From: a virus
Strand: one strand, 5' to 3'
Length of the DNA: 12,559 nt
Virus genome (UHGV): UHGV-1669866
A program made the position numbers and the translations under genes. Positions 8,984 through 12,139 of the stretch are shown here, one piece after another; within the stretch, counting starts at the first letter, position 1; the number at the start of each line of letters is the position of its first letter. A model generated the notes under the pieces. The model was not told where the DNA came from and did no database searches. It worked only from the letters and a program-made list of their open reading frames with translations.

Positions 8984-9240
8984 GTCTTACCCCCAATAAG
9001 GGGATTTGCTCTATTTAATTAGGAATAAGGTCGATTACTGATAGAACAAATCCAGGCTACTGTGTTTAGTAATCAGATTTGTTCGTGACCGATATGCACG
9101 GGCAAAACGGCATGAGGTTGTTAGCGCAACCTCCTGCCACCCACTTTCACGAAGGTCATGTGTAGAAAGCCGCAGCATAACTATCACTGATGAATTCAGG
9201 ATAGCCAGTGGCTACGGCTCAGGTTGGGTTGTGGCGGTCG
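8984..9240 (-). promoter_or_regulatory. lambda-like 5' leader upstream of S (region of the S translation-initiation control structure)
   Basis: The reverse complement of about 8984-9240 closely resembles my recollection of the lambda sequence immediately upstream of S; the similarity ends near 9240. Confidence 0.4.
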
Positions 9241-9515
9241 GTGCTGAACTCCGACTTAATGACGATAGGCGTGTACCGACGCCTCGTTTTACTTCCTCCG
9301 CTTTCACGGCTTCACCCTAGACCAGCTTTACGAAATCCTCGTAAACCTAACCGCGGCAGATATGACCGGCACGGTGTGCCATATCACGGACCGGCGGGTG
9401 TCTCGTTCACCTGATTAACGCATCAGCCTGCGTATTCACCACAACGATAAGAGTACTGCGCGGCACCTTTCACCAATTCCGCGAGGTCTGCGGGTTCAAT
9501 GCTCTTACCTGTTGT

Positions 9516-9566
9516 GCAAACAAAAAAGCCACCGTTGCAACTTAAGAGTCACTAACGGCAGCTTAC
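9516..9566 (-). terminator. tR'-like intrinsic terminator just downstream of the Q gene
   Basis: Minus strand: GCUGCCGUU, a 17-nt loop, AACGGUGGC (9-bp stem with two G-U pairs), then UUUUUUGUUUG. The following sequence TGCACAACAGGTAAGAGCATTGA resembles the lambda tR' flank as recalled. Confidence 0.5.
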
Positions 9567-9572
9567 CTTCTA

Positions 9573-9602
9573 ATTATGGCTAAATGGATAATTGCATGTC
9601 AA
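9573..9602 (-). promoter_or_regulatory. candidate sigma-70 late promoter (pR'-like) overlapping the Q stop codon
   Basis: Minus strand TTGACA (plus 9597-9602), 18-bp spacer, CATAAT (plus 9573-9578). Predicted start lies at about 9566, at the foot of the terminator hairpin. Confidence 0.45.
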
Positions 9603-10098
9603 GGTTTTTAACAGCAACATGCTTAACTTTCTCAACACGTTTACGCATTTTGAAAGCATTTTGCATTGGCTGGTATAAAACAAATAATGACGCTTTCAGG
9701 ATGTCGTCAATTTCGTTTCTACAGGTTGCCAGTGAAGGTTTTCTCCATCCCTCGCCACCACGTCCACACATCTTGCGTGGCTTTGCAGTCGCGTGATAGT
9801 AGGATGCAATTGCTCGCTTAGATGAACCATGAGCGTAGTAGCTGAGGAGGATGCCAAAGGCTTTCTTGTCAATGTACATGACGGAATCAACGACCTGAGA
9901 AATCAACATTCCATCATCATCATTACACATTGGCCTTGTCATAATTCTTCCCGGCTCTACGCTCTCCATGAACTTCGCTATTACGCTGCTCATGCGCTTT
10001 TCCAGACGACCTGAATAAACCCATGCGCCCCACAGTTCAAGCCAGCCATTCAGCCACTCGTGCTGCTCTTTGGTGAGGTTTAGTTCTCTTATGCTCAT
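9580..10098 (-). CDS. Q: late-gene antiterminator Q (phage 82 / Phage_antitermQ-type, 172 aa)
   Basis: Motifs LELWGAWV and RPMCNDDDGMLISQVVD resemble the 82-type Q family as recalled. Sits between ninH and the lysis cassette; ATGA overlap with the ninH stop; GAGGGGAA RBS. Confidence 0.75.
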   Translation of the reverse strand: MSIRELNLTKEQHEWLNGWLELWGAWVYSGRLEKRMSSVIAKFMESVEPGRIMTRPMCNDDDGMLISQVVDSVMYIDKKAFGILLSYYAHGSSKRAIASYYHATAKPRKMCGRGGEGWRKPSLATCRNEIDDILKASLFVLYQPMQNAFKMRKRVEKVKHVAVKNLDMQLSI

Positions 10099-11361: not shown

Positions 11362-11540
11362 CTTGTTTTCCTCGCACGTTCTCTAAGCCACCGGATATCC
11401 CACAGGTGAGCCGTGTAGTTGAAGGTTTTTACGTCAGATTCTTTTGGGATTGGCTTGCGTTTATTTCTGGAGCGTTTCGTTGGAAGGTATTTGCAGTTTT
11501 CGCAGATGATGTCGGTGATGCTTCGTCGCTGTCGTCTCAT
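11358..11540 (-). CDS. ninE: NinE-like protein (about 60 aa from the MRRQRR start)
   Basis: [23 protein letters not shown]...[14 protein letters not shown] resembles lambda NinE as recalled. The internal ATG at 11540 follows the HNH stop directly; the ORF-track start at 11558 would add 6 residues overlapping the HNH gene. Confidence 0.72.
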
Positions 11541-12139
11541 GCCGCCCTGTCTCCCCATCTCGCTTTCATTTTTTCATTTGCAAATCGCCAGAATCTTCCT
11601 TTGTGATATGAGCTTTCGCCATTACAGCAACGACTAATTGACGAACTATCAAATCCTTCTCTGACAGCATCCATAGCTGCTTCATAATAAACCTCCTCCC
11701 CAGTTTTCATGTCAGTAGAAATAACAGCTTTACTGGCAGGATGATCACCACTAAATTTACCTAGCGATATAGGTATTCTTCCATTTTGTTTATATCCGTG
11801 CTTTGAGTTTTCAGAATGTGATACCCATTCAAGGTTTTCAGCCCTATTGTCATCTCTTTGCCCATTTTTGTGATTAACTACCAAGCCATCACAGAACCCT
11901 GTACAGAATGCTTTCGCAACTATCCTGTGGGCGCTGTATTTCTTACCGTATACCTTTATTTGAAGATATCCTGTCGACTTGCACTTGAATGGTTTTACGC
12001 TAGTGCCATTAATTATTTTCTTATATGGCCTCTGTCTGGTTGATGTTACTGTAACTTCCCTCGTAATAGACCTGAAATTTCCTTTATTGCTAACCTGATA
12101 AAATGGAATCCCTTCGATATCTACCCAAACCTCAATCAT
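11537..12139 (-). CDS. HNH homing endonuclease (NUMOD4 + HNH_3 type, 200 aa)
   Basis: N-terminal NUMOD4-like motif ([15 protein letters not shown]) and HNH_3-like core (HRIVAKAF...[25 protein letters not shown]). The gene lies in an AT-rich stretch that contrasts with flanking DNA. GGAGG before the ATG. Confidence 0.85.

Follow-up and report, generated by a model that had tools for sequence, protein, structure and literature searches.

A predicted phage 21-type late-operon control cassette overlapping the end of the Q gene in a P22-like Escherichia coli phage

Lambdoid late genes are switched on by allowing polymerase to run through a terminator. In lambda the promoter is constitutive, polymerase makes a sigma-dependent promoter-proximal pause, Q has its site between the -35 and -10 elements and a terminator stands ahead of the late genes; the cassette predicted here shares each of these. 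It differs in that lambda requires an extra -35-like element and in that the lambda Q family is unrelated to the Q found here. The terminated leader of the lambda late promoter pR' is long, ∼194 nt (6S RNA). Phage 21 has a compact version of the same layout, reportedly known since 1991 through Guo, Kainz and Roberts.

The late promoter of phage 21 has been demonstrated as such and was used in the cryo-EM and antitermination assays of its antiterminator, Q21 (bioRxiv 10.1101/651190; PMC6606751). The Q21 site consists of two TGAGCA repeats, in which the C:G pairs at -21 and -13 are essential; the residues that read it are H95, A124, R127 and R128 (Shi 2019, PMC6606751). In the phage 21 record OL657228 the annotated elements are the -35, two Q-binding elements, QBEu (ATTGAGCA) and QBEd (AATGAGCA), the -10 and the start site, then an SDPE at +2 to +8, a terminator at +3 to +50 (citing PMID 1704887) and two tRNA genes. 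An older, partial record of phage 21, AJ237660, marks a 50-nt 'aRNA' at the corresponding place. The two records disagree in the downstream QBE repeat (GCAAGTAGCAA in AJ237660, GCAAATGAGCAA in OL657228) and their Q differs by ∼3%, a discrepancy that is probably an old sequencing error. Phages 21, 82, phi80 and P22 all make short late-promoter RNAs (Sy 2020, PMC7547250).

The DNA analysed here (the window) is a stretch of 12,559 nt from UHGV virus genome UHGV-1669866. Overall it belongs to a mosaic P22-like phage with HK620, Sf6 and CUS-3 as relatives, and its genes lie on the minus strand. To judge from sequence, the segment at the end of the Q gene very probably controls the late operon in the manner of phage 21, in an E. 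coli phage of the P22-like group (CUS-3/Huey/HK620/Sf6-like); Escherichia phage Huey matches this region with 100% identity and CUS-3 with 99.6%. The features are as follows, with signed positions counted from the predicted start:

10098-9580, minus strand: Q gene, 172 aa, stop TAG at 9582-9580 (open reading frame and family match)
9602-9597, minus strand: -35 TTGACA of the putative late promoter pR', positions -36 to -31, Q codons 167-169
9596-9579, minus strand: promoter spacer, 18 bp, TGCAATTATCCATTTAGC (read from the sequence)
9593-9586, minus strand: putative upstream Q-binding subsite AATTATCC, core TTATCC, -27 to -20
9585-9578, minus strand: putative downstream Q-binding subsite ATTTAGCC, core TTAGCC, -19 to -12
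9578-9573, minus strand: -10 CATAAT, positions -12 to -7
9566, minus strand: predicted transcription start (G), 7 nt past the -10
9565-9560, minus strand: predicted sigma-dependent pause element TAAGCT, -10-like, +2 to +7
9564-9517, minus strand: predicted intrinsic terminator tR', hairpin and T-tract (fold and identity with phage 21)
9564-9526, minus strand: tR' hairpin, +3 to +41, with 17 pairs, one bulged A and a 4-nt loop CUUA
9527-9518, minus strand: T-tract T6 G T3, beginning at +40
8983-8660, minus strand: first late gene, lambda-type holin S (Pfam)

By its sequence, the Q of the window is a phage 21-family late-gene antiterminator. A Pfam search assigns it to PF06530 (E=1.6e-25), and it matches the PDB Q21 chains 6JNX/6P18 at E∼1e-91 over residues 1-162. 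Identity with the Q21 of phage 21 is 85% overall and is unevenly spread: residues 1-102 contain just 3 differing positions, and residues 103-162 are diverged. The only Pfam matches are PF06530 and DUF1133, with none to the lambda-Q family, and this Q type has been classed as 12% identical to P22 gp23 (Zaworski 2020, PMC8022706). Cassettes of the lambda type (lambda, P22 gene 23) and of the phage 82 type were excluded by Q family.

The translation of 10098-9580 ends in ...VKNLDMQLSI, ten residues that run past the C-terminus of Q21. Because the window Q is longer than Q21 by these ten codons, which encode the -35 and the putative Q-binding repeats, the -35 and both repeats fall inside coding sequence; the -35 and spacer sit within the last seven Q codons plus the stop, read on the minus strand. 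In phage 21 and loci of its type, by contrast, the -35 lies beyond the gene, starting 6 nt past the Q stop. Other arrangements occur among related phages: in the types of Edwardsiella phage GF-2 and Providencia PSTCR7lys the stop TGA is embedded in TTGACA, and in the window type the -35 begins, at most loci, 23 nt before the stop codon ends. Within Q there is also an antisense site, TTGCGTGGCTTTGC (9773-9786, plus strand), that fits the CII-binding pattern TTGYN6TTGY at a position homologous to the paQ promoter/CII site annotated in the phage 21 record; the pattern alone is not significant, with 3 matches in the window against 3.3 expected.

A preliminary description of this DNA had proposed a near-consensus promoter across the end of Q, a start near 9566, and a terminator beginning essentially at that start. 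All three hold up. TTGACA and CATAAT, 18 bp apart on the minus strand, form an 11/12 match, which is the top promoter match in the window and the only one of 11/12. Position 9566 coincides with the base homologous to the annotated late start of phage 21, a purine directly before TAAGCT, and would be the start here too; counted from it, +3 is the first base of the hairpin and +40 the first of the T-tract. What that description overlooked, while naming promoter and terminator correctly, were the putative Q-binding repeats in the spacer and the pause element TAAGCT, the two elements on which a response to Q would depend.

The promoter taken alone is weakly significant, because 62 of 500 dinucleotide-shuffled versions of the window (∼12%) contain an 11/12 match. 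What speaks for function is the placement of the elements and their homology, rather than motif statistics. That a match this good turns up in 12% of shuffled windows would suit a simpler reading, in which the hairpin is the plain terminator of the early-right operon, that is, the 3' end of the Q mRNA, and the promoter-like hexamers are incidental. Placed 16 nt beyond the Q stop, the hairpin would also halt unmodified polymerase arriving from upstream. Such a reading is nevertheless highly improbable: the -35, the -10 and the 8-bp repeats keep a fixed spacing to the +2 to +7 element in 248 divergent loci, and in phage 21 the promoter at the homologous site has been shown to be a late promoter.

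The two subsites AATTATCC and ATTTAGCC form 8-bp direct repeats in the spacer (-27 to -12). The downstream one includes the Q stop TAG and overlaps the first base of the -10. They are in register with QBEu and QBEd of phage 21, respectively, with the C at -21 and the C at -13 both retained, and differ from the phage 21 repeats at core positions 2 and 6: the cores read TTA(T/G)CC in the window against TGAGCA in phage 21. The upstream core reads TTAGCC in Sf6 and many other loci, and the downstream subsite is invariant across all loci with the window's Q type. Two of the base-reading residues of Q21 are changed in the window Q, H95R and R128N, and R127 is retained. On these grounds the window Q would be a specificity variant of Q21, with core TTAGCC instead of TGAGCA, and it probably does not cross-react with phage 21. 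Since the repeats, the -10 and the spacer length differ from those of phage 21, the Q21 binding data are not directly applicable. The QBE difference of this Q subtype is already published: for phage L, which has the same Q type as the window, AATTATCC/ATTTAGCC was put forward as its probable QBE, and three of the six contact residues were reported to differ in L Q (Zaworski 2020, PMC8022706).

Outside the repeat cores, the likeness to phage 21 is extensive. Both have a TTGACA -35 and 8-bp direct repeats at -27 to -12, both start 7 nt past the -10, and both have TAAGCT at +2 to +7, where the phage 21 record has its annotated SDPE. The 39-nt hairpin from +3 is identical and is followed by a T-tract, giving a leader of ∼50 nt. 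In alignment the window leader equals that of phage 21 from +2 to +45, with the start base being G here and A in phage 21; everything from TAAGCT to the end of the hairpin is identical. The stretch between the spacer and +1 differs: the -10 is CATAAT in the window and AACACT in phage 21, and the spacer is 18 bp against 17 bp. The first T-run has six T in the window and seven in phage 21. The tRNA-Asn and tRNA-Thr genes that follow the phage 21 terminator are absent from the window, where ARAGORN detects no tRNA genes after the terminator.

This layout had been described as far more compact than that of lambda, which is correct in so far as the leader is shorter; there is no long (∼190 nt) lambda-type leader, the T-tract beginning at +40. 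It does not, however, depart from known arrangements. Compactness is the normal phage 21 layout, as the terminator at +3 to +50 in OL657228 and the 50-nt RNA in AJ237660 make clear.

For the tR' hairpin, which reads on into TTTTTTGTTTG, the predicted folding energy is -19.7 kcal/mol; no other T-tailed 39-mer of the window, on one strand or the other, is as stable, and a fold of the 71-nt context gives z = -1.96. A simple terminator scan of the window did not flag it, and it was detected by direct folding. Its 5' arm extends from +3 to +20 and its 3' arm from +25 to +41, so that bases +3 to +7 of the pause element double as the beginning of the 5' arm. Across 20 distinct leader variants of the 21 type and L105 type, 95% of cells are paired, compared with 30-67% in slid controls; two pairs have changed on both sides and seven on one side only. 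The terminated RNA is predicted to be ∼45-50 nt long. Searched against Rfam, the whole window has no match at gathering scores, and 9400-9700 has none at E<=1.

How far these elements are maintained was surveyed in IMG/VR and GenBank, which gave 253 loci whose Q proteins share 60-100% identity with the query set. Four loci without a callable promoter were left out, as was AJ237660 because its downstream repeat broke the register rule; a single scoring rule, with the -10 as reference, was applied to the other 248. The -35, the -10, the +2 to +7 element and the spacer repeats recur in each of the 77 anchored loci that have the window's Q type, the repeats varying by a T/G polymorphism in the upstream subsite and by one further single-base variant. 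The +2 to +7 element reads TAnGnT in 248/248 loci, and the +1 base is a purine in 246 of them, the other two being unscored after register correction.

The leaders are more varied. Where a T-run was found, it starts at ∼+40 in 153 loci (compact leaders) and at +50 to +69 in 69 loci, which have a separate GC-rich hairpin as terminator. The compact hairpin itself comes in three sequence-distinct versions (21-type, L105/L140-type and GF-2-type), starting at +3 or +4; the GF-2 terminator, although compact and starting at +3/+4, is unrelated in sequence. A conserved 5' hairpin including the pause element was considered for all leader types and dropped, RNAalifold giving no consensus over 53 distinct leaders. 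Folded individually, non-compact leaders form weak hairpins (-3 to -11 kcal/mol), and a supported hairpin is limited to the compact leader type. Leaders are also exchanged between phages: ∼10 of the 77 loci with the window's Q and promoter bear an unrelated HK629-type leader (TATGCT, T-tract at ∼+53), and the 21-type leader is found behind four different Q/QBE types. From these swaps, the promoter/QBE and pause/terminator units recombine independently, which agrees with the label 'boundary sequence' given to the homologous segment in CUS-3.

These exchanges bear on two further readings of the module. The first takes it as primarily a small-RNA gene, whose ∼47-nt transcript acts in trans in the manner of StxS, besides or instead of being a by-product of antitermination. 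There is a precedent in the Shiga-toxin phages, where the terminated pR' transcript StxS is an Hfq-bound regulatory RNA (Sy 2020, PMC7547250), and the RNA predicted here would end in a strong hairpin and U-tail, the usual Hfq-binding module. Yet it is nearly all one hairpin, with two free 5' bases and a loop of 4 nt, and because nearly the whole RNA is locked in this way, no single-stranded seed is evident. That loci with an unchanged Q and promoter can carry an unrelated leader speaks against conservation of a target in trans, and the Rfam searches of the window and of 9400-9700 match no known family. A trans-acting role therefore seems very unlikely.

On the second, the 64 bp that follow Q would be nothing but a joint at which mosaic modules recombine and would have no regulatory role. 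The CUS-3 record labels the homologous 64 bp (9579-9516 in the window) 'bsq4; boundary sequence' and nothing else, and a leader that occurs behind four Q/QBE types does behave as a portable junction. A joint and a function are compatible, however, and the segment consists of the pause element and terminator annotated in phage 21, with pairing kept through substitutions; the probability that it is a joint and nothing more is close to negligible.

The closest relatives point the same way. In Sf6, HK75, phage L, ST64T and CUS-3, Q is 97-100% identical to that of the window, and the promoter, repeats and leader are the same. In the Sf6 record (AF547987) the corresponding site is labelled 'P R'... 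nearly identical to phage 21 late promoter', together with a 'qut site' and 't R'', and the HK75 record places pR' and tR' at the homologous positions. HK75 and CUS-3 have TTATCC/TTAGCC and lack tRNAs, as does the window, whereas in Sf6 both cores read TTAGCC, making the repeat perfect, and tR' is followed by genes for tRNA-Asn and tRNA-Thr. With a Q21-family Q, the phage 21 pause and tR' leader and the annotations of Sf6 and HK75, the Q-dependent late antitermination put forward in the preliminary description appears well founded. For annotation, pR', QBE, SDPE and tR' labels could be added to the CUS-3 and Huey records, which have none of them here.

Another arrangement in this Q family is that of the HK629/Hafnia yong1/HK639 type. 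Q, promoter and repeats are the same or related, and a -10-like TATGCT or TATGTT stands at +2 to +7, but termination is assigned to a separate GC-rich hairpin whose T-tract lies at ∼+53 to +69, which leaves the pause element outside the terminator stem. The HK629 record puts a 'putative pR'' ∼150 bp further downstream, which looks like a misannotation.

Q and its repeats change together across the 248 loci. Residue 127 of Q is always R and position 5 of each 6-bp repeat core is always C. Residue 128 is R in the 83 loci with G at core position 2, and N or K in the 165 loci with T; residue 95 is R in the 165 loci with C at core position 6, and H, Y or L in the 83 with A. The association of residues 95 and 128 with these bases has no exceptions in the 248 loci, which fall into 22 distinct classes. 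Each of the four ways of combining the two switches is represented, the single switches by Edwardsiella phage GF-2 (R95 and R128 with TGAGCC) and Salmonella phage MS2 LVA (L95 and N128 with TTAGCA). Further variants pair R95/E124/K128 with TTACCC and L95/R124/R128 with TGGACA.

This covariation is a sequence correlation among related phages, and is consistent with the published contact residues. That the window carries a natural specificity variant of Q21 and that a simple residue-to-base code runs through the whole family has, in our estimate, about an even chance of being right. No published account of a per-residue code was found within a limited literature search. The layout itself is already known, as a pR'-QBE-SDPE-tR' cassette of the L/Sf6/HK75/CUS-3 subtype, and the covariation is the sole element that is mildly new. 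The code, if true, would make Q/QBE pairs predictable and mutually orthogonal, and the covariation could guide the design of orthogonal pairs of processive antiterminators and promoters in synthetic biology.

How the cassette would work is taken over by analogy from the biochemistry and structures of phage 21 (Yin 2019, bioRxiv 10.1101/651190; Shi 2019, PMC6606751), on which the assignment of pausing, Q binding, termination and read-through at this locus depends. Sigma-70 polymerase would initiate constitutively at ∼9566 from the promoter within the 3' end of Q. Sigma region 2 would then rebind the non-template TAAGCT (+2 to +7) as it does a -10, causing a pause in the teens of nucleotides. 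Without Q, polymerase would resume, make the 3' arm and terminate at the U-tract, releasing an RNA of the short length predicted above. With Q, two protomers on the AATTATCC/ATTTAGCC repeats would dock on the paused complex, and one of them would form a 'nozzle' ring in the RNA exit channel that bars hairpin formation. Because the 5' arm of the terminator includes the pause element, Q loading would be decided before the 3' arm is made. The modified polymerase could then pass terminators into S, R, Rz and the head genes.

The genomic setting fits such a role. NinH, RusA and YbcO lie upstream of Q (Pfam). Downstream and on the same strand, the holin comes first, then an endolysin-sized ORF, Rz, the large terminase, a P22-type portal, the scaffold and the coat, and these genes from holin to coat would form the operon controlled by the module. 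Between terminator and holin are ∼530 nt (8984-9516, minus strand), in which the Huey record has two small hypothetical ORFs, 9208-9414 on the plus strand and ∼9035-9178 on the minus strand; neither has a Pfam match. The last 240 bp before the holin (8984-9224) correspond to 'bsq3' of CUS-3, a lambda-like sequence upstream of S. In the nin region, a 200-aa ORF (11537-12139, minus strand) with NUMOD4 and HNH_3 domains, of the homing-endonuclease type, occupies the place where lambdoid phages usually carry nin genes.
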